From assembly GCA_039024555.1 (NCBI GenBank), contig JBCCQQ010000005.1, positions 32,001-96,000 on the forward strand: a stretch of DNA of 64,000 bases, written 5' to 3'. Made by a program: the position numbers and the translations under genes. The notes beneath the pieces are model-generated. The model was not told where the DNA came from and did not search any database. It worked only from the letters and a program-made list of their open reading frames with translations. The stretch's first letter is position 1, and each line of letters begins with the position of its first letter. Of this stretch, positions 3,841 to 63,919 are shown one piece after another. The stretch comes from Cyanobacteria bacterium P01_D01_bin.156. GTDB taxonomy: Bacteria; Cyanobacteriota; Cyanobacteriia; Phormidesmidales; Phormidesmidaceae.

Positions 3841-4838
3841 GTTTGGGCAGGTTTCCCCTGCGAGTGCTCCAATACCGCTTTAGCATTGCGTCGCCACATA
3901 GCAGGTTTAATTCGCCTCAGGGCCGATGCCGGAAACCGTCGATCCCAATCTTCTTTAGTCAGGTTAGATAGCTCGTTTAGTTGGGGAGCCACATTGTCTG
4001 GATAAGGATCAAAGTCCTTTACATCAGTGGGCTGAGCAAACCGTTGATTCCAAGGGCATACGTCTTGACACACATCACAGCCTGCCACCCAGTTATCTAA
4101 GTGATCAACGATGGATTTTGGTAGTTGTTCCGTACGATTTTCAATGGTGTGGTAGGCAATACAGCGGTTCGCATCGATCACTCCCGGCGCTCTAATGGCC
4201 TGGGTGGGGCAAGCGTCTAAACAGCGAGTGCAGGTGCCGCAGTGGCTGGTGTGGGGAAATGAGGCAGGCAGCTCCACATTGGTTAGGATTTCCCCTAAAA
4301 ACACCCAAGAACCATAGTTTCGGGTAATCAAATTACCGTTTTTGGCGACCCAGCCCAATCCCGCTTGCTGGGCCCAAAATTTATCCTGAACCGGACCTGT
4401 ATCGGCATAGTATCTAGCCGCAATAAGTCCACCTTGGGGATGGGACTGGGATTGGAGCCATAGGCATAGCTGTTTGAGCTTTTTATGCATCACCCGATGG
4501 TAGTCGCGCCCCCAGCCATAGCGGGCAATCTTACCGTACTTCTCCCCCTCAGGGCGTTGGTGGGGGGTGTAGTAGTTAAGGGCCACACAGATTATCGAGC
4601 ATACGTCTGGCATGACGCGACGAATGTTTTCTCGCTTCGGATTGGCCATCCAATCCATATCAGCCTGATACCCCTGGTGTAGCCACTGACGCAGTCGAGT
4701 TTGCATAGTCTGCTCAGGCGCAGTGGGTTCAGGTGCTACTGCCACAACACCAAAGCGGTGAAATCCAACAGCCTGACTCTGCTGCTCCAGACGCTCAATC
4801 AATGGCGTGGACGTTAGGTTTTGGGAAGAATTTGGCAT
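3837..4838 (-). CDS. queG: tRNA epoxyqueuosine(34) reductase
   Basis: ARYGWGRDYH, DTGPV, CGTCTRCLDACPT and GCDVCQDVCPWN Fe-S motifs. Confidence 0.96.
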   Translation of the reverse strand: MPNSSQNLTSTPLIERLEQQSQAVGFHRFGVVAVAPEPTAPEQTMQTRLRQWLHQGYQADMDWMANPKRENIRRVMPDVCSIICVALNYYTPHQRPEGEKYGKIARYGWGRDYHRVMHKKLKQLCLWLQSQSHPQGGLIAARYYADTGPVQDKFWAQQAGLGWVAKNGNLITRNYGSWVFLGEILTNVELPASFPHTSHCGTCTRCLDACPTQAIRAPGVIDANRCIAYHTIENRTEQLPKSIVDHLDNWVAGCDVCQDVCPWNQRFAQPTDVKDFDPYPDNVAPQLNELSNLTKEDWDRRFPASALRRIKPAMWRRNAKAVLEHSQGKPAQT

Positions 4839-6185: not shown

Positions 6186-6232
6186 TTTTTCTGGATTGAC
6201 AAACTTGAATACTAGAGCCGACTACAATATTA

Positions 6233-6344
6233 GGTTTCTAGGGTTCCGGTTTAGCCATCAATGAGCAAACTGTTCTGGATTAAATGTCTGGACCGAGAGA
6301 AATCGCCAGCTTTCTGGTACACGGCGGGATAAAAGCCCGGGAGA
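6233..6344 (+). ncRNA. Guanidine-I (ykkC-yxkD) riboswitch aptamer
   Basis: TTTCTAGGGTTCCG...CTGGACCGAGAGAAA...CACGGCGGGATAAAAGCCCGGGAG conserved blocks; lies upstream of gdmH. Confidence 0.95.
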
Positions 6345-6396
6345 AGTCATTTAGCAGGGTATGTCTGCTATTAGATTCTCTCGGGCTTTTGGTATT
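6331..6396 (+). terminator. Riboswitch expression platform (intrinsic terminator overlapping aptamer 3' tail)
   Basis: AAAAGCCCGGGAGAA (6331-6345) pairs with TTCTCTCGGGCTTTT (6376-6390); inner TAGCAG/CTGCTA hairpin. Confidence 0.85.
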
Positions 6397-6452: not shown

Positions 6453-7631
6453 ATGAGTGATACGCCCACATTTCGTAGTCCTGCTGATTCAGAGGCGAAT
6501 CGTGCCCTGGAACTTGAGGCCCAGTTACCCCTTACGGGCTGGCAACAGGAAGTGTCTCAGGGGTTAGAGTATGGCCTGGAGGCTGCTGAGAGTATTCGCG
6601 ATCGCAGCATTCCCACCTTCTCTCGTGGTGAACTCCCCCACTACGCAGGTATCAACACGTTTCTCAAAGCGCCCTACATTGAAGATGTGCGCAAAGTAGG
6701 AGAATACGATGTGGCCATTGTCGGCGTACCCCACGATTCGGGAACGACCTATCGGCCCGGTACCCGATTTGGTCCCCAAGGAATTCGACGCATTTCTGCC
6801 CTTTACACTCCCTACAATTTTGAAATGGGGATTGATCTGCGGGAACAGATTACCCTGTGTGATGTGGGCGACATTTTTACAATTCCGGCCAACAACGAAA
6901 AATCCTTTGACCAAATCTCTAAAGGGGTGGCCCACGTTTTTAGCTCCGGTGCCTTTCCCATTATTCTGGGCGGCGACCACTCCATTGGGTTTCCTACAGT
7001 GCGAGGCGTCTGCCGTCACCTAGGGGATAAAAAAGTAGGTATTATCCACTTTGACCGCCATGTGGATACCCAGGAAACAGATCTAGACGAGCGCATGCAC
7101 ACCTGCCCCTGGTTCCATGCCACCAATATGGCCAACGCTCCAGCGAAAAACCTTGTACAACTGGGTATTGGCGGTTGGCAAGTGCCGCGTCAGGGCGTCA
7201 AAGTGTGTCGCGAACGGGCCACGAATATTCTGACAGTCACCGACATCACCGAGATGGGCTTAGATGCAGCAGCTGATTTTGCCCTAGAGCGTGCCCTCGA
7301 CGGTACCGACTGTGTTTACATCAGTTTTGATATCGACTGTATTGATGCTGGATTTGTCCCCGGTACCGGTTGGCCAGAGCCTGGTGGTCTGTTGCCCCGC
7401 GAGGCTCTATATCTATTGGGCAAAATCATTCGCAGTGCCCCAGTGTGCGGTCTTGAGGTGGTAGAAGTGTCTCCCCCCTATGACATCAGCGACATGACCT
7501 CCCTCATGGCAACCCGGGTTATCTGCGATGCGATGGCTCACCTGGTGCAGTCTGGTCAGCTACCGCGCTCTGGCACCCCCGACTATATTCACGCCGAGGC
7601 CAACATGGGTGTCGGCAGCGATTGGCAGTAA
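6453..7631 (+). CDS. gdmH: Ni2+-dependent guanidine hydrolase (ureohydrolase/agmatinase superfamily)
   Basis: GGDHS, HFDRHVDT, SFDIDCID metal ligands; MHTCPW and GTGWPEPGG variants typical of GdmH; riboswitch and hypA/hypB context. Confidence 0.93.
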   Translation: MSDTPTFRSPADSEANRALELEAQLPLTGWQQEVSQGLEYGLEAAESIRDRSIPTFSRGELPHYAGINTFLKAPYIEDVRKVGEYDVAIVGVPHDSGTTYRPGTRFGPQGIRRISALYTPYNFEMGIDLREQITLCDVGDIFTIPANNEKSFDQISKGVAHVFSSGAFPIILGGDHSIGFPTVRGVCRHLGDKKVGIIHFDRHVDTQETDLDERMHTCPWFHATNMANAPAKNLVQLGIGGWQVPRQGVKVCRERATNILTVTDITEMGLDAAADFALERALDGTDCVYISFDIDCIDAGFVPGTGWPEPGGLLPREALYLLGKIIRSAPVCGLEVVEVSPPYDISDMTSLMATRVICDAMAHLVQSGQLPRSGTPDYIHAEANMGVGSDWQ

Positions 7632-7642
7632 GGGAGGTAATT

Positions 7643-7996
7643 ATGCATGAAACCGACATGACCAAAGCTTTAGTCGGCACCATTCGAGACTGGTGGGACT
7701 CCCAACCAGAGCGCCCCACGATTCAAAAAGTTCACCTAATTGTGGGAGCCTTTACTTGTGTAGAACCCGCCAGCCTTAAATTTGCCTTTGATGTACAGAC
7801 CCAAGGCACCTTTCTCGATGGGGCACAGTTAGTCATTAAAGACGTTCCGCTGGTGGCTCACTGCCATACTTGCCATACCGATTACCGTCCCGAGTTTGGT
7901 AGTCAATATGCTTGCCCCACCTGCAATAGTCCCATGGACGATATTCGTTCAGGTCGAGAGTTAAAAATCGACCGCTTGGAATGCGTTACAGCCTGA
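7643..7996 (+). CDS. hypA: HypA-type nickel metallochaperone (GhaA-like)
   Basis: MHE N-terminus after GGAGG SD; CHTC and CPTC zinc motifs; SGRELKI. Confidence 0.93.
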   Translation: MHETDMTKALVGTIRDWWDSQPERPTIQKVHLIVGAFTCVEPASLKFAFDVQTQGTFLDGAQLVIKDVPLVAHCHTCHTDYRPEFGSQYACPTCNSPMDDIRSGRELKIDRLECVTA

Positions 7997-8107
7997 AATG
8001 CATTGCCATGGCTATCGATTGTTGGGTTGCATCGGTAGATGACTTTTAAAAAGAGACAAAGCCTACACGCTTTAACCCAACCGACTGCTGATTTACCCTT
8101 CCAAAAA

Positions 8108-8803
8108 ATGCACCAAACCTTTGACGCCGCCCTTGAAATGAACCTGCTCCATGCGAATCAGCAGGGTGCCGATCACAATCGCGCCCATTTTGATCAGTGG
8201 GGCATTACCTGCATCAACTTGATGAGTAGCCCCGGTGCCGGTAAAACTCAGCTATTAGAAGCCACCCTCAGAGACCTAGACAAACTTGAGGTGGCTGTTA
8301 TCGAAGGGGATATGACCACAGAGCTGGACGCCAATCGTTTACGACAGTATGGCGTTCCTGTGGTTGCCATTAATACAGGTCGGGCCTGCCATCTCGACTC
8401 AAAAATGGTAGCAGGTGGCATCCATCAGCTACAGCATGACTACACTCCAGCCACCATTGACTTGGTGGTTGTAGAAAATGTGGGCAATTTGGTCTGCCCT
8501 GCAGAATTTGAAGTGGGAGAGCACACCAAGGTAGCACTGCTTAGCGTTACAGAGGGAGAAGACAAGCCGCTTAAATATCCCGTAATGTTTCGAGAAGCGG
8601 ATTGCTTATTGATTACAAAAACAGATTTAGCCCCCTATCTAGACATTGATTTAGACCAAATTGAGGCAAATGTGCGACAAATTAATCCCAATGTCACCAT
8701 CATTCGTATCTCTGCCAAGACCGGAGAAGGTCTAACCACTTGGTTGGATTGGGTGCGTCAAACAGTAAATGAGCAAGCAAACCGTTTACAGCTCACAGTA
8801 TGA
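8108..8803 (+). CDS. hypB: HypB-type nickel-insertion GTPase (GhaB-like)
   Basis: SSPGAGKT P-loop, [33 protein letters not shown]. Confidence 0.94.
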
Positions 8804-8873
8804 GCACCTAGGGTCCTGTAAAAACGGTATGATTGCTGACCTGCAAAAGGGTTAACGTGTAGTGAGGTACGAA

Positions 8874-9914
8874 ATGCGACGACAACAATTTATATCGACC
8901 TGTTTAGCATTCATCTTTGGGTTGGTAGTGGCCGTGGGCTGTAGGGGCAATGCTCCAAATACGGTCGCTGACCCTACTGAAACAGCAGCGCCTGAAACAG
9001 CGCCTTTAGTAATTGGTTACAGCAACTGGGCTGGTTGGTGGCCCTGGGCGATCGCAGAAAAAGAAGGTCTGTTTGAAACCAACGGGGCTAATGTGGAATT
9101 AAAGTGGTTTGATAGCTACATTGCTTCTATGGAGGCCTTAGCTGCTGGACAGTTGGATGGCAACTGTCAAACCCTTAATGACACTATTTCTTTTGCCGCT
9201 GATGCGGTTAATGGAGAGGTAGCCGTACTAGTAAACGACAACTCAGCCGGTAACGACAAAATTATTGTTACTGAGGATATCAACACCATCCAAGAGCTCA
9301 AAGGGAAAAAAGTTGCCATTGAAGAAGGTGTCGTTGATGACTTCTTATTGACCCTGGCTTTAGAAGAAAATGGCATGTCGCGAGATGATGTGGAAATTTT
9401 ACCCCTGGAAACAGGGGCTGCTGCTGCCGCATTTGCCGCTGGTCAAGCCGATGCAGTAGGGGCATTTCCTCCATTCTGGCTGACTGCCCTTGAACGGGAA
9501 GGTAGTAAGGAACTGATTACCTCCGCTGAGTACCCCGGAGCCATTCCCGACTTGTTAGTTGTGACTCAAAAGGTCATCGATGAACAACCGGAGCAGGTGC
9601 AGGCCTTGATTAATACCTGGTTTGATATTTTGGCCTTTATGGAAGAAAATCCCGAGCGCTCTGATGAAATCATGGCTGAGCGAGCTGGGGTCACCACGGA
9701 AGAGCTGCAGCTCTTTAAAGAAGGGACTCGCATGTTTACCCTGGAAGATAACCTAGAGGCCTTTAGCCCTGGCGATAGCATGAAGCACATGCCCTTTGCG
9801 GCGAAACAAATGGCTGACTTTATGGTGAATGTTGGGTTTATTCCAGAAGCGCCCGACCTGGATACTATTCTGGACGATCAGTTTGTGCGAGCCTACGCCG
9901 AATCAGCAAGCTAA
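8874..9914 (+). CDS. ABC transporter substrate-binding lipoprotein (NitT/TauT-type; probable guanidine binding)
   Basis: Lipobox VAVGC; GYSNWAGWWPW and DNSAGNDKI motifs; position in guanidine operon. Confidence 0.88.
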   Translation: MRRQQFISTCLAFIFGLVVAVGCRGNAPNTVADPTETAAPETAPLVIGYSNWAGWWPWAIAEKEGLFETNGANVELKWFDSYIASMEALAAGQLDGNCQTLNDTISFAADAVNGEVAVLVNDNSAGNDKIIVTEDINTIQELKGKKVAIEEGVVDDFLLTLALEENGMSRDDVEILPLETGAAAAAFAAGQADAVGAFPPFWLTALEREGSKELITSAEYPGAIPDLLVVTQKVIDEQPEQVQALINTWFDILAFMEENPERSDEIMAERAGVTTEELQLFKEGTRMFTLEDNLEAFSPGDSMKHMPFAAKQMADFMVNVGFIPEAPDLDTILDDQFVRAYAESAS

Positions 9915-9929
9915 GCCAAACTTTTGTTG

Positions 9930-9963
9930 AAAGGAGCCCTAAAAGCCGAAAGGGGCTCCTTTT
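9930..9963 (+). terminator. Intra-operon stem-loop after the binding-protein gene (attenuator or mRNA stabiliser)
   Basis: AAAGGAGCCC...GGGCTCCTTT followed by T. Confidence 0.65.
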
Positions 9964-10000
9964 ATGTTGTTGCATTGCCCCCCATTACCGCCACACAGCC

Positions 10001-10837
10001 GTGACCTCTGTATCTAATAGTGAGACGTCATCCCCAGTAACCCAAAAACGAACGTCAATCTTCTGGCGATTAGCAGAGGATATTCCCCCTGGTCTGGACA
10101 CCGTACTGCGTCTAATTTCAGTCATTGTGCCCCTTGGCCTCTGGTGGTTAATTGCCAGTTTGGGGGTAGTTAATGCTAAGTTTCTGCCGTCTCCTGTAGA
10201 AGTTATCCAGTCTCTGTGGGTTTTCTGGGAGAAGGGCCTACTGGTGGAAGATACTTTAGCCAGCATTTTTCGAGTTACCACCGGGTTTTTGTTGGCAGCA
10301 ATTCTTTCCATACCTGTGGGTATCGCCATGGGGGCATTTGCCAGCATCCGGGCTCTGTTAGAACCGATTATGGGCATTGTGCGCTACATGCCTGCAACGG
10401 CATTTATCCCACTGTTGATTATCTATTTGGGTTTGGATGAGCCTCCTAAAATAGCTCTGATTTTTATTGGGGTAATTTTCTTCAACACCCTAATGATTAT
10501 GGATGCCGTTAAATTTGTTCCGAAAGACTTGTTGGAAACGACCTATACCTTAGGGGGCTCGAAGCGACAAACCCTATTTCGGGTAATTACCCCCTATGTG
10601 GTTCCCAATATTCTAGATACATTTCGGATTAATATGGCTGCCGCTTGGAACCTAGTCGTGGTAGCAGAGCTTCTCGCAGCTAATGAGGGATTAGGGAAGA
10701 GAATTCAACTGTCCCAAAAGTTTTTTAGGACAGACGATATCTTTGCCTATCTAATTATCCTGGGAATTATTGGATTTATCATTGATCTCTCACTGAGATT
10801 GATTTTACGGCGTACCTGTAAATGGGCGTTTGATTAG
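10001..10837 (+). CDS. ABC transporter permease (NitT/TauT family)
   Basis: Multiple TM helices, LPSP, RYMPATAFIPL, WNLVVVAELL. Confidence 0.92.
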   Translation: MTSVSNSETSSPVTQKRTSIFWRLAEDIPPGLDTVLRLISVIVPLGLWWLIASLGVVNAKFLPSPVEVIQSLWVFWEKGLLVEDTLASIFRVTTGFLLAAILSIPVGIAMGAFASIRALLEPIMGIVRYMPATAFIPLLIIYLGLDEPPKIALIFIGVIFFNTLMIMDAVKFVPKDLLETTYTLGGSKRQTLFRVITPYVVPNILDTFRINMAAAWNLVVVAELLAANEGLGKRIQLSQKFFRTDDIFAYLIILGIIGFIIDLSLRLILRRTCKWAFD

Positions 10838-10893
10838 AGATTTTCTACTGTTACAGGGTATGGGCAACAACAATCCAGACGTCTGAAATCATC

Positions 10894-11661
10894 ATGCATT
10901 TAGAAGTGTCTCAACTGCACAAGCAATTTATGACCGATCAGGGACCGCTTACGGCCCTGGAAAATATAAATTTGCATGTGGAAACAGGAGAATTGATTTG
11001 TGCAGTGGGAGCATCCGGTTCGGGAAAGTCTACGTTACTACGCCTAATTGCGGGGTTGGACTTTCCCACAGCAGGTGAAATTCGGGTAGATGGAGAATTG
11101 GTAACAGGTCCAGGGGCCGATCGGGGCATGGTGTTCCAGCGCTATACCCTCTACCCATGGATGTCGGTTCAAAAAAATGTGGAGTTTGGTCTTAAGCTGC
11201 GAGGTATTTCTAAGATAGAACGCCGAAAACAGGCGTCCTATTATTTGGATATGGTGGGGCTGGCTGACTTTGCTAGCTCGCTACCGAAACAGCTATCGGG
11301 AGGGATGAAACAGCGGGTTGCGATCGCACGAGCCCTAGCCAATCAACCCAAAATTCTGCTTCTTGACGAACCCTTTGGAGCTCTGGACGTACAAACCAAA
11401 GAAACCATGCAGCAGTTTTTGCTCGATCTATGGCAGCGAACAGGCGTCAGCATTTTAATGATCACCCATGATGTCGGTGAAGCCGTTTTTCTAGCCCAGC
11501 GCATCTATGTTATGACAGCTCGACCGGGCACCATTCAACAGGAAGTTCGGGTTAATTTACCCGTTCAGCGCGACTACACCATCAAACGCCAAACCCAATT
11601 TCGTACCTATCAAGATGACATCACCGATCTACTCAGGGACACAAACCCCATATCGCTGTAG
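10894..11661 (+). CDS. ABC transporter ATP-binding protein
   Basis: GASGSGKST, LSGGMKQR, LLLDEPFGALD. Confidence 0.95.
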   Translation: MHLEVSQLHKQFMTDQGPLTALENINLHVETGELICAVGASGSGKSTLLRLIAGLDFPTAGEIRVDGELVTGPGADRGMVFQRYTLYPWMSVQKNVEFGLKLRGISKIERRKQASYYLDMVGLADFASSLPKQLSGGMKQRVAIARALANQPKILLLDEPFGALDVQTKETMQQFLLDLWQRTGVSILMITHDVGEAVFLAQRIYVMTARPGTIQQEVRVNLPVQRDYTIKRQTQFRTYQDDITDLLRDTNPISL

Positions 11662-60604: not shown

Positions 60605-60937
60605 ATGAAAATGCCTGAATTCGTCAAACCTGAATTTGTCAACGCTGAAGAGCTTCAACATGTAAGAGTTCCCTGCAGTATCCATCTGTGGCAGGTATTG
60701 GAGGGACAACGAAAAAGTCTGACCAACAGCCAAAGTATAAAAACGATGGAATCTCAAAAGGGGTTTACGGAAAAATCTTTTTGGGATGAGTGGCTAGAAA
60801 AATATGATGGACGACTTCCCAATGGTTTTTACTGGATTGACCACCAGGCGAATAATCCAAATATGGTCCTAAGTAATAACTGGTTTGCGGCTGAATATCA
60901 ACTAGAACAAAAAGGCGTTGTTGTTTTTCCAGAATAG
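60605..60937 (+). CDS. Hypothetical protein
   Basis: 110-aa ORF in an otherwise empty region. Confidence 0.55.
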   Translation: MKMPEFVKPEFVNAEELQHVRVPCSIHLWQVLEGQRKSLTNSQSIKTMESQKGFTEKSFWDEWLEKYDGRLPNGFYWIDHQANNPNMVLSNNWFAAEYQLEQKGVVVFPE

Positions 60938-61259: not shown

Positions 61260-61817
61260 ATGAAAGACTCATTCAAGGACGTTTCTATTTCATCGTCAGC
61301 GCCCAAAACGGGTGAAATGTTTTTGCAAGAATTAGAAGACGCTCGTCGAGAGAAGATTCTTCAATTTCATGAGATCCATCGGGCTGAAATCGAATCTTCT
61401 TGGGGGTCAAAATCCAAGCATCAGGCCTGGCCAGGTGGCTACATGGACCATCTAACCGAAACGTTTCGAATGGTTGAGACAATGTACGAAGGACTCTCTA
61501 AATTACACCCACTGCCATTTTCAAGAGACTCAGCCATCATTGTCCTTTACTACCACGATGTTGAAAAGATCTGGAAGTACACAGTGGGACTGCCTAAAGA
61601 CTTTGACAAAGGTACATTTCTTTTCGAAACACTTGCCACAGACTACAAGATTAAGTTTTCTCCTGCAGAAGTCAACGCCCTTCGATATATTCATGGCGAA
61701 CCTGAGGCAGAGTACAACCCAGATACTCGATTGATGGGACCTTTAGCAGCATTCTGTCATTCCATCGACACCATGTCAGCAAGAATGTGGCATCACGAAG
61801 GTCAAGGGCTTGGATAA
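61260..61817 (+). CDS. Stand-alone HD-domain phosphohydrolase (YhaM-like motif order)
   Basis: KHQAWPGGYMDH, YHDVEK, IHG, HSIDTMSA. Confidence 0.7.
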   Translation: MKDSFKDVSISSSAPKTGEMFLQELEDARREKILQFHEIHRAEIESSWGSKSKHQAWPGGYMDHLTETFRMVETMYEGLSKLHPLPFSRDSAIIVLYYHDVEKIWKYTVGLPKDFDKGTFLFETLATDYKIKFSPAEVNALRYIHGEPEAEYNPDTRLMGPLAAFCHSIDTMSARMWHHEGQGLG

Positions 61818-61928: not shown

Positions 61929-61942
61929 GTATTAATAAATAC
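61929..61942 (+). promoter_or_regulatory. Candidate NtcA site (GTAttaataaaTACa) upstream of the second riboswitch
   Basis: Exact GTA-N8-TAC, but in AT-rich DNA and about 150 nt upstream of the aptamer. Confidence 0.45.
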
Positions 61943-62093
61943 AGTTCTACTCAGTTCAATGCTGTTACTAATTAATAGTATGAAGTTCAATATGTAAGTG
62001 CTCTATTGGTTTATTTGAATCAATTAATTTTTTCAAAAACTTTTTTTTGCACTGATTTTTGAGTATTTCAGCGTAGTCTAAAAACAACAATTC

Positions 62094-62191
62094 GGCATCT
62101 AGGGTTCCGACTTAATTGCGTTAAGTGCCTGGTCCAAGAGATGCAGTCAGGCCGTTAAGCCTGATTCACGGAGGGATAAAAGCCCGGGAGG
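62094..62191 (+). ncRNA. Second guanidine-I (ykkC-yxkD) riboswitch aptamer
   Basis: GCATCTAGGGTTCCG...CTGGTCCAAGAGATGC...CACGGAGGGATAAAAGCCCGGGAG; GCATCT/AGATGC and TCAGGC/GCCTGA stems; TAGTCT -10-like hexamer at 62074-62079. Confidence 0.93.
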
Positions 62192-62245
62192 AGTCACTCA
62201 GCTAAATGCTGATTTGATTTTCACTCCTGGGCTTTATTTTATTTT
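62178..62245 (+). terminator. Riboswitch expression-platform terminator
   Basis: AAAGCCCGGGAG pairs with CTCCTGGGCTTT (62224-62235), followed by ATTTTATTTT. Confidence 0.85.
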
Positions 62246-62301
62246 AGTCCTCAATTTTAGATGTTTTTAGTTGGCATGTTTGATTTTAGGAGATGGGTTG
62301 C

Positions 62302-63801
62302 ATGGAAAATACAGCTTTTTCCTGGGGAATTATCGTATTTCTCCTAGGAACGTTAGGCATTGGTGTGTGGGCATCTAAACAAATCAAAGGCGATAGCGTC
62401 AATTTTTTAGTCGCCGGCAGAGGCCTCGCTCTACCTCTTGCTGCAGCTACATTAATGGCCCAGTCAGTTGATTCAAACGCCACCTTGGGTAACACTGACC
62501 TATCGTCAGAGTTCGGCTTTTGGGCAGGGGCCGCTTTACCCATCGGGTTATCGCTATGTTTACTGTTGACCGGACTGTTCATAGCAAAACCCATGAACCG
62601 CATGGGGTTAATTACTATTCCCGATTTTTATCGTGTGAAATATGGACGTACGGTTGAGTTAATTGCGGCCTGCATTATGACCGTCAGTTTCTCATTCTTA
62701 CTAGCTGGCAACCTGGTGGCTGGTGGCTATATGTTCGAGAACTTTCTGGGCCTAAGCTATCTCGGTGGCATCACCTTACTCGCTGTTTTAGTATTTGCCT
62801 ACACCGTCTCCGGCGGTCTGTTTGCTGTTGCCTACACTGATTTTATTCAGGTCTTTATTGCCTTGTTGGGCTCTTGGGGATTGTTAATCTATGTGCTGGC
62901 AAATTTTGGCTTAAACATTGAGCCCGGAATGGGACCTTTGGCATTTGACCAGCTCACCGCCGTTAGTTCAGGGGCTGCCATTAACTGGGCCAGTATCATC
63001 GCCCTTGGGTTTGGCAATATGGTAGCCATTGACTTTATGGCTCGAATTTTTGCGGCGGATAGTCCACAAACTGCCCAAAGAGCGTGCTTATTTGCATCTG
63101 CTGGCACATTAATTATCGGTATTCCATTTTCGATTATCGCTCTGGGTTCAAACAGTATTTTTAGCCAATTGGGGATTACGGCGGATGGTCCCGTGCTGTT
63201 TTCTCTCCTAGAAAATGTGATTCCCCCCTTCCTCGGTTTGTTAGTGTTGGCGGCCATCCTATCAGCCTCACTATCTACGGCAGATGGTGCCATCCTGGGG
63301 ACCTCATCGGTTTTGGCTCACAATGTTTTCGGTATTCGGCATGCCAATGCCCATGGCGCAGGTGGCGACAAGCTACTGTTGATCACCCGTTTGATGGCTA
63401 TTGTAATTACGCTGCTTGGTCTCTTCTTAGGGTTGCGGGTACCCCAAACAGGGGTATTGTTACTGCTAGCTTTTGATATGAGCTTTGCAGGCTTGGTGGT
63501 ACCTCTGATTGGTGGTTTATTTTGGGAAAAGTCAACAGCACAGGGTGCGCTGGCCTGTATTCTGGCAGGGTCCATCACTCGGTTTGTATTCTTTGCCCTA
63601 ATGCCAACAATGTTTGGCGTTGACAATACGCTGCTGTATATACCCAATGGCATTTTTACCATTGATTTTGATGGCTTTCCCACCCTCATTTGTCCATTAA
63701 TCGGACTGATCGCGTTTATTGTTATCTCCAAGATTACCTATCGCGAAAAGAGAGGCGACCAGGAACAAGCTAGGGTGATGGCTAAAGTTCGAGGGCTGTA
63801 G
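62302..63801 (+). CDS. Sodium:solute symporter (SSS/SLC5 family) under guanidine riboswitch control
   Basis: FLVAGRGL, TIPDFYRVKYG, YTVSGGLFAVAYTDFIQ, AAILSASLST; about 13 TM helices; AGGAG SD fits ATG 62302. Confidence 0.92.
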   Translation: MENTAFSWGIIVFLLGTLGIGVWASKQIKGDSVNFLVAGRGLALPLAAATLMAQSVDSNATLGNTDLSSEFGFWAGAALPIGLSLCLLLTGLFIAKPMNRMGLITIPDFYRVKYGRTVELIAACIMTVSFSFLLAGNLVAGGYMFENFLGLSYLGGITLLAVLVFAYTVSGGLFAVAYTDFIQVFIALLGSWGLLIYVLANFGLNIEPGMGPLAFDQLTAVSSGAAINWASIIALGFGNMVAIDFMARIFAADSPQTAQRACLFASAGTLIIGIPFSIIALGSNSIFSQLGITADGPVLFSLLENVIPPFLGLLVLAAILSASLSTADGAILGTSSVLAHNVFGIRHANAHGAGGDKLLLITRLMAIVITLLGLFLGLRVPQTGVLLLLAFDMSFAGLVVPLIGGLFWEKSTAQGALACILAGSITRFVFFALMPTMFGVDNTLLYIPNGIFTIDFDGFPTLICPLIGLIAFIVISKITYREKRGDQEQARVMAKVRGL

Positions 63802-63879: not shown

Positions 63880-63919
63880 ACACAGTAAGCCGCTGAACAT
63901 GTTCAGCGGCTTACTGTGT
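63880..63919. repeat. Perfect 40-bp palindrome downstream of the symporter (terminator or cruciform)
   Basis: ACACAGTAAGCCGCTGAACA/TGTTCAGCGGCTTACTGTGT. Confidence 0.85.

Follow-up and report, generated by a model that had tools for sequence, protein, structure and literature searches.

A single transporter gene placed directly behind a guanidine riboswitch raises the question of what the transporter carries, and in which direction. Such a gene lies near the end of the window, by which we mean the whole stretch of 64,000 nucleotides that was analysed. A sequence-only reading of this DNA had proposed that it encodes a second, non-ABC importer, driven by Na+, for guanidine or a guanidino compound. 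The features of the locus are the following.

61929..61942, plus strand: NtcA box GTA-N8-TAC, a putative nitrogen-limitation promoter element seen in the sequence
62088..62192, plus strand: Guanidine-I (ykkC subtype 1) riboswitch aptamer, Rfam RF00442, full model
62138..62139, plus strand: G-A bulge, its A at the position that discriminates between guanidine and ppGpp/PRPP (mapped by way of the Rfam alignment)
62180..62245, plus strand: intrinsic terminator with the aptamer 3' tail as its 5' strand (ON-switch expression platform), from the MFE and centroid folds
62288..62292, plus strand: Shine-Dalgarno sequence AGGAG, 9 nt before the ATG at 62302
62302..63801, plus strand: sodium:solute symporter (SSS/SLC5) of 499 aa, candidate guanidinium importer; Pfam SSF, best solved relative CHT1, AlphaFold model
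63880..63919, no strand assigned: perfect 40-bp palindrome, 79 nt after the symporter stop codon, a possible 3' stem-loop or terminator

The Rfam model RF00442 (Guanidine-I) matches 62088-62192 on the plus strand with 90.4 bits as compared to a gathering threshold of 63 (E 6e-15, model positions 1-107), and the ykkC-type aptamer that the sequence-only reading had placed at 62094-62191 lies inside this match. The whole genome contains exactly two Guanidine-I matches, this one and another at 6227-6345, before gdmH. Folded alone, the aptamer takes on the expected P1 and P2. When 62085-62250 was folded, the 3' tail of the aptamer, GCCCGGGAG (62182-62190), paired with CTCCTGGGC (62224-62232) ahead of a U-rich run at 62233-62245, which is the overlapping terminator in ON-switch layout that had also been claimed. 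None of 200 shuffles was equally stable (z = -4.69), and the inner hairpin at 62198-62212 was the sole report of a simple terminator scan. In ykkC RNAs the bulge base equivalent to A46 is A in guanidine aptamers and a pyrimidine in ppGpp/PRPP aptamers (PMC6031431, PMC8457001). Here the base is A62139, according to a mapping that we infer from the Rfam alignment, and this discriminator A rules out a switch of the ppGpp/PRPP type. By its predicted structure the leader RNA would be a Guanidine-I ON switch that responds to guanidine. The sequence-only reading had started its locus at 61929, which is the first base of the GTA-N8-TAC box; this motif is the NtcA consensus as cited in PMC12704784. No public RNA runs are listed for the window, which weighs neither for nor against the proposed regulation.

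The reading frame behind the leader ends at 63801 and has its likely start at the ATG at 62302, which gives 499 aa, and another in-frame ATG is present at 62293. The protein matches Pfam SSF with E 7e-36 and 124 bits, as compared to a cut-off of 22.8, in agreement with the SSS/SLC5 transporter of roughly 500 aa that had been claimed directly downstream of the aptamer. It had also been claimed that no catabolic gene stands beside it, and the adjoining genes are indeed an HD-fold gene upstream and metal-ABC-like genes downstream. A 185-aa gene at 61260-61817 has no Pfam or NCBIfam match, its look-alikes in the Atlas are HD-domain proteins, many of them viral, and it is not linked to the symporter in the homologue loci. 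A 110-aa ORF at 60605-60937 also gave no Pfam or NCBIfam match.

The enzymes for guanidine use are encoded at the other end of the window, where the sequence-only reading had placed gdmH at 6.4 kb, correctly so.

6227..6345, plus strand: the other Guanidine-I riboswitch, at the head of the operon for guanidine hydrolase; Rfam 79.3 bits, same terminator layout
6453..7631, plus strand: gdmH, guanidine hydrolase; the diagnostic Thr, His and Trp required of guanidinases (PMC11410670, methods) are all present
7631..8803, plus strand: ghaA and ghaB (HypA-/HypB-like nickel chaperones); Pfam HypA and cobW/HypB, ORFs
8862..11661, plus strand: gimABC-type ABC importer (binding protein, permease, ATPase); ORFs, SsuA-family binding protein and BPD_transp_1, assigned by gene order as in PMC12704784 and not by comparison with Sll1080-1082

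The operon has the order riboswitch-gdmH-ghaA-ghaB-gimABC and is situated 56 kb from the symporter gene. The two Guanidine-I riboswitches, although this far apart, belong to the same regulon. Urease is also present in the source genome.

A scan of GTDB contigs gave 73 symporter loci, of which 10 were dropped, 9 because they lacked the 5' end or enough upstream DNA and one as a 25% paralogue. Among the 63 cyanobacterial homologue loci that were kept, which include many close kin, 59 have a Guanidine-I switch at most 700 nt upstream. Computed folding found a terminator overlapping the 3' tail of the aptamer in 56 of the 60 riboswitch-bearing loci, the window counted, and 42/59 loci have GTA-N8-TAC within 250 nt upstream of the aptamer, as compared to about 7% in shuffles. 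The discriminator was scored as A by script in 50 of the 59; two loci were unscored, and the seven exceptions are mis-anchored or non-matching, with 4-5 of them reading A by eye. The flanking genes differ among the loci, and the switch and the symporter gene remain paired. The riboswitch belongs to the symporter gene.

At least a dozen copies of the cyanobacterial type have no switch or gdmH nearby (among them L038, L040, L055, G329 and G233, and the metagenome loci L096, L100, L104 and L106). For the five of these unlinked copies with testable genomes, gdmH was found elsewhere in the genome. A guanidine riboswitch was not found by cmscan in L038, L040, L055, L065, L084 and L088, and when a degenerate riboswitch was sought in 20 upstream regions of unlinked copies, using a profile from 89 instances, it was found in L110 only. 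The Prochloron locus (L065, 7500-8000) has no riboswitch between gdmH and the divergent symporter gene, and two tandem GTA-N8-TAC boxes are located upstream of the latter. On the conjugative plasmid pREB7 of Acaryochloris marina (L090, 403-5503) the riboswitch-symporter unit follows genes for an ammonium transporter and a potassium channel, which implies that the unit can be mobile.

In 401 genomes sampled evenly across the phylum, the symporter was found in 9 and gdmH in 56, and all 9 symporter genomes have gdmH. When the symporter genomes were extended to 58, comprising 50 of the 73 loci and 8 sampled relatives, gdmH was present in 52, and the 6 misses are all MAGs. In 5 of the 8 sampled relatives ghaB is immediately followed by the symporter gene, in the slot occupied by gimABC in the source genome, and the symporter gene is divergent from gdmH in five further loci (L028, L030, L036, L049 and L065). 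The symporter gene belongs to guanidine catabolism.

The relation to the ABC importer was compared in the same genomes. GimA-like proteins were not found in 9 of the 56 gdmH genomes, and the symporter is present in 6 of these 9 as compared to 3 of the 47 with GimA, the source genome counted. The 6 genomes span 5 families, and the naive Fisher p of 2e-4 is overstated since kin genomes are not independent. GimA was found in 2 of the 10 genomes where the symporter gene is behind ghaB or divergent from gdmH, as compared to 35 of the 48 other symporter genomes. A GimA orthologue is nevertheless present in 37 of the 58 symporter genomes, and the source genome likewise has both, which shows that the symporter is often not a replacement and rules out strict replacement of GimABC as a general rule. 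Three gdmH genomes (G047, G133 and G179; L171-L173) gave neither a GimA nor a symporter match, and no other transporter was seen beside gdmH in the stretches examined, one of them cut off by the end of a contig; these genomes may use yet another guanidine uptake route. In one family (f3) a GimA-like protein was found in 16 of 26 genomes and a gdmH match in 0 of 26, and the GimA-like proteins there may serve another guanidine pathway or substrate.

Relatives were also found outside the cyanobacteria. Guanidine-I, gdmH (59% identical, with the Thr, His and Trp kept), the symporter gene (56%), formamidase and urease are found together on a Rubrobacter plasmid, and in Nonomuraea gdmH is divergent from the symporter gene, with no switch found. 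Among the best 80 of 277 metagenome loci, many of them on short contigs, a GdmH-type gene was seen in 19 and a riboswitch motif in 26. Three high-GC metagenome loci (L151, at 3877-4169, L153 and L163), which group with actinobacterial proteins in a quick tree, have Guanidine-I before the symporter gene and, back-to-back with it, Guanidine-III before a divergent gdmH. Here two RNA classes indicate the same ligand. The quick tree gave long-branch warnings and is used only for its three well-supported clades, not for donors or the order of events; it places separate cyanobacterial, haloarchaeal and actinobacterial-type clades inside one supported subfamily.

The haloarchaeal clade is about 55% identical, and a riboswitch was not found in it. 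Genes for a regulator with AbrB/PhoU domains and for a ureohydrolase that shares only about 35% identity with GdmH adjoin the haloarchaeal symporter gene. The best solved match of this ureohydrolase is GdmH, with the Thr and His kept and the diagnostic Trp replaced by Glu. The Glu for Trp, the low identity to GdmH and the lack of a riboswitch imply that the substrate of the haloarchaeal members may differ. This conserved module (L085 6956-11368, L086 4255-8548, L089 7001-14489 and many of L103-L148) often includes a JAB/MPN-domain gene, and urease or formamidase is encoded nearby. Formamidase (fmdA) is found near the symporter gene in both Rubrobacter and Haloarcula (L087 8556-9800 and L086 13195-14466), and in Natronorubrum bangense an IS200/IS605 element interrupts the symporter gene (L089 7001-9296).

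The coexistence with GimA in most carriers, and the haloarchaeal clade with its non-GdmH ureohydrolase, could be explained if the symporter imports a substituted guanidine or guanidino compound, such as methylguanidine, guanylurea, agmatine or guanidino acids, intracellular breakdown of which yields guanidine, the symporter then having another substrate than GimABC where it occurs beside it. Enzymes degrading methylguanidine can also occur in guanidine riboswitch operons (PMC12508155). No converting enzyme, however, is seen repeatedly around the cyanobacterial copies (25 largest clusters), the operon partners of the symporter are gdmH and ghaAB, and the symporter is enriched where GimA was not found. 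We regard this explanation as unlikely, and as the most probable of the rivals.

The AlphaFold model of the symporter has a mean pLDDT of 90 and the LeuT-type SSS fold. In a Foldseek search its best solved relative was human CHT1, with a TM-score of 0.78-0.80 and about 23-25% identity. Using the Na2, Na3 and choline-site residues of CHT1 as named in PMC11589582, the Na2 residues A60, V63, A343, S346 and S347 of CHT1 align at the sequence level with A53, V56, A322, S325 and T326 of the symporter (TM1/TM8), and two of the three Na3 residues are kept, D180 and D328. These two Asp are often lost in actinobacterial members, which implies that the coupling ion may vary. The aromatic residues of the choline cage, W62, Y67, Y91, W141, W254 and W406 of CHT1, correspond to S55, A60, L83, L133, A242 and L387, so that none of the six is aromatic. 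In an alignment of 454 sequences D57, N137, D244, F391 and D392 are conserved to 93-100% in every bin above 35% identity, and in the bin below 35% Trp occupies the W62 and W141 positions in 75-79%. The invariant Asp57 belongs to the loop that binds chloride in CHT1. A site lined by carboxylates, as predicted from the alignment to CHT1 at 23-25% identity, would suit guanidinium.

That the protein might transport only urea, proline or choline had been raised as one case against the sequence-only reading. The choline cage is absent, and every named SSS equivalog scores below its NCBIfam cut-off; PutP, PanF, ActP and MctC are all far below, for instance PutP with 107 as compared to 515.5, and TIGR00813 reaches 119.6 with a cut-off of 184. 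The lost cage residues and these scores rule out the identities of choline, proline, pantothenate and acetate transporter.

It is conceivable that the distinct SSS subfamily in cyanobacteria, actinobacteria and haloarchaea is dedicated to guanidinium as a whole, with the carboxylate of D57 taking the place of the CHT1 chloride and binding a small planar cation. The haloarchaea would then possess an unrecognised archaeal module for guanidine assimilation, with the divergent ureohydrolase and, instead of the riboswitch, a protein regulator of AbrB/PhoU type. We offer this extended idea tentatively, and as doubtful in its present form.

Urea is a different matter. The DUR3 urea transporters share the fold, an NtcA box would fit the import of urea or another simple nitrogen source that is merely co-regulated with guanidine use, and urease genes are found near the Rubrobacter and haloarchaeal copies. 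In the fold search, however, DUR3 came far below CHT1 (E about 1e-9 as compared to 2e-17), a guanidine switch on a urea importer would be of no clear use when GdmH yields urea inside the cell, and the pattern against GimA is left unexplained, which makes import of urea or another such nitrogen source very unlikely. Even less probable is a supply of Ni2+ for GdmH and urease. It could be argued from the acidic residues in the core and from several operons in which the symporter gene immediately follows ghaAB for the nickel chaperones, but there is no invariant His, Cys or Met in the symporter alignment (A1), the enrichment in genomes without a match to the guanidine-binding ABC system indicates the same cargo, and we know of no SSS metal transporter. 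SSS proteins are importers, the symporter always occurs with gdmH in the sample of 401 genomes and the NtcA box implies induction under nitrogen shortage, which leaves detoxification by export of guanidinium, as carried out by Gdx, as the least probable explanation of all, even if a gene that stands alone behind a guanidine switch often encodes an exporter (PMC12186494).

The explanation that we prefer, and consider probable, is that the symporter takes up guanidinium by secondary-active, Na+-coupled transport and supplies it to GdmH and urease for conversion to ammonium, with NtcA and the riboswitch forming an AND gate on its expression. The RNA, the terminator, the NtcA motif, the fold, the Na2 residues and the genomic associations are observed, and the comparative evidence supports the explanation well; from these observations we infer the response to the ligand, the direction, the substrate, the coupling ion and the binding residues. 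During nitrogen limitation NtcA would activate the promoter at 61929, and transcription would end at the terminator except where the aptamer, having bound guanidinium, retains its own 3' tail. With a promoter under NtcA and a terminator released by guanidine, production of the carrier would require both a shortage of nitrogen and the presence of guanidine. The carrier would then bring in guanidinium together with Na+ bound at the Na2 site, and perhaps a second Na+, the guanidinium being held by acidic and polar residues for which D57, N59, N137, D244 and D392 with F391 are candidates. Inside the cell guanidinium would be processed by GdmH, and the product by urease, to ammonium. The symporter may stand in for GimABC where this is missing, and in the source genome it may work beside GimABC as a possibly cheaper, inducible route. 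The riboswitch in 59 of the 63 loci, gdmH in all 9 sampled symporter genomes, the lost choline cage and the discriminator A all support the Na+-driven importer of the sequence-only reading, in which guanidine as the substrate and the coupling to Na+ are the predicted parts.

Guanidine has only recently been recognised as a source of nitrogen, and in the literature searched GimABC is the one importer with experimental support. If our explanation is true, a single-gene, ion-coupled importer would be the third transporter family for guanidine uptake, and it would explain how guanidine is taken up in gdmH-bearing cyanobacteria without gimABC. Many proteins that are at present annotated as 'Na+/proline symporter' or 'choline transporter' would also be assigned a function, it would become clear how a CHT1-like fold switches from quaternary ammonium to guanidinium, and guanidine-inducible expression tools would gain a convenient partner consisting of one gene.

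In the literature searched, which did not extend to Nelson 2017, Sinn 2021 and Funck 2022, whose context tables could list the family, we found no report that connects an SSS protein with guanidine. No SSS protein is named in the available text of PMC12186494, PMC12623156, PMC12508155, PMC7266159 and a preprint on picocyanobacteria, and symport is absent from the text and supplement of PMC12704784, as from the preprint text, as far as these were available. PMC12704784 mentions a low-affinity route of guanidine uptake, with which we do not equate the symporter. The part of the sequence-only reading that concerned a second, non-ABC guanidine importer held with respect to the SSS family, which is not linked to guanidine in the literature found, but the non-ABC idea itself is not new, as an APC-superfamily permease has been predicted to be an ATP-independent guanidine importer in comammox Nitrospira and betaproteobacterial ammonia oxidisers (PMC11410670). 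By its comparative evidence the symporter is a strong candidate for a new transporter family doing a known job.

The closest functional parallel is GimABC (Sll1080-1082), the experimentally supported ABC importer of guanidine in Synechocystis sp. PCC 6803 (PMC12704784). The symporter is in the same regulon, with putative NtcA control and the link to gdmH-ghaAB, it has the same proposed cargo and in several genomes it takes the same operon slot. GimABC is driven by ATP and gimABC is described with an NtcA promoter, whereas the symporter is predicted to be a single-protein secondary carrier and has its own guanidine riboswitch. The comammox APC permease is also controlled by a riboswitch, independent of ATP and predicted to import guanidine, and it adjoins a guanidinase. 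It belongs, however, to the TIGR03428/PTHR45649 models with predicted proton symport, whereas the symporter matches SSS models and has an Na2 site; identity of the two is ruled out, since TIGR03428 gave no match at E 0.001 among the 9 families listed. The nearest solved relatives are CHT1 (SLC5A7) and its prokaryote-type homologue (PDB 9rws), which share the Na2 site and two of the three Na3 residues, but the symporter is without the aromatic choline cage of CHT1 and has the invariant Asp57 in the chloride loop. The Gdx/SugE exporters of the SMR family resemble the symporter in being lone transporter genes behind a guanidine riboswitch (PMC12186494, PMC12623156), but they are unrelated proton antiporters of 100-150 aa that export guanidinium.
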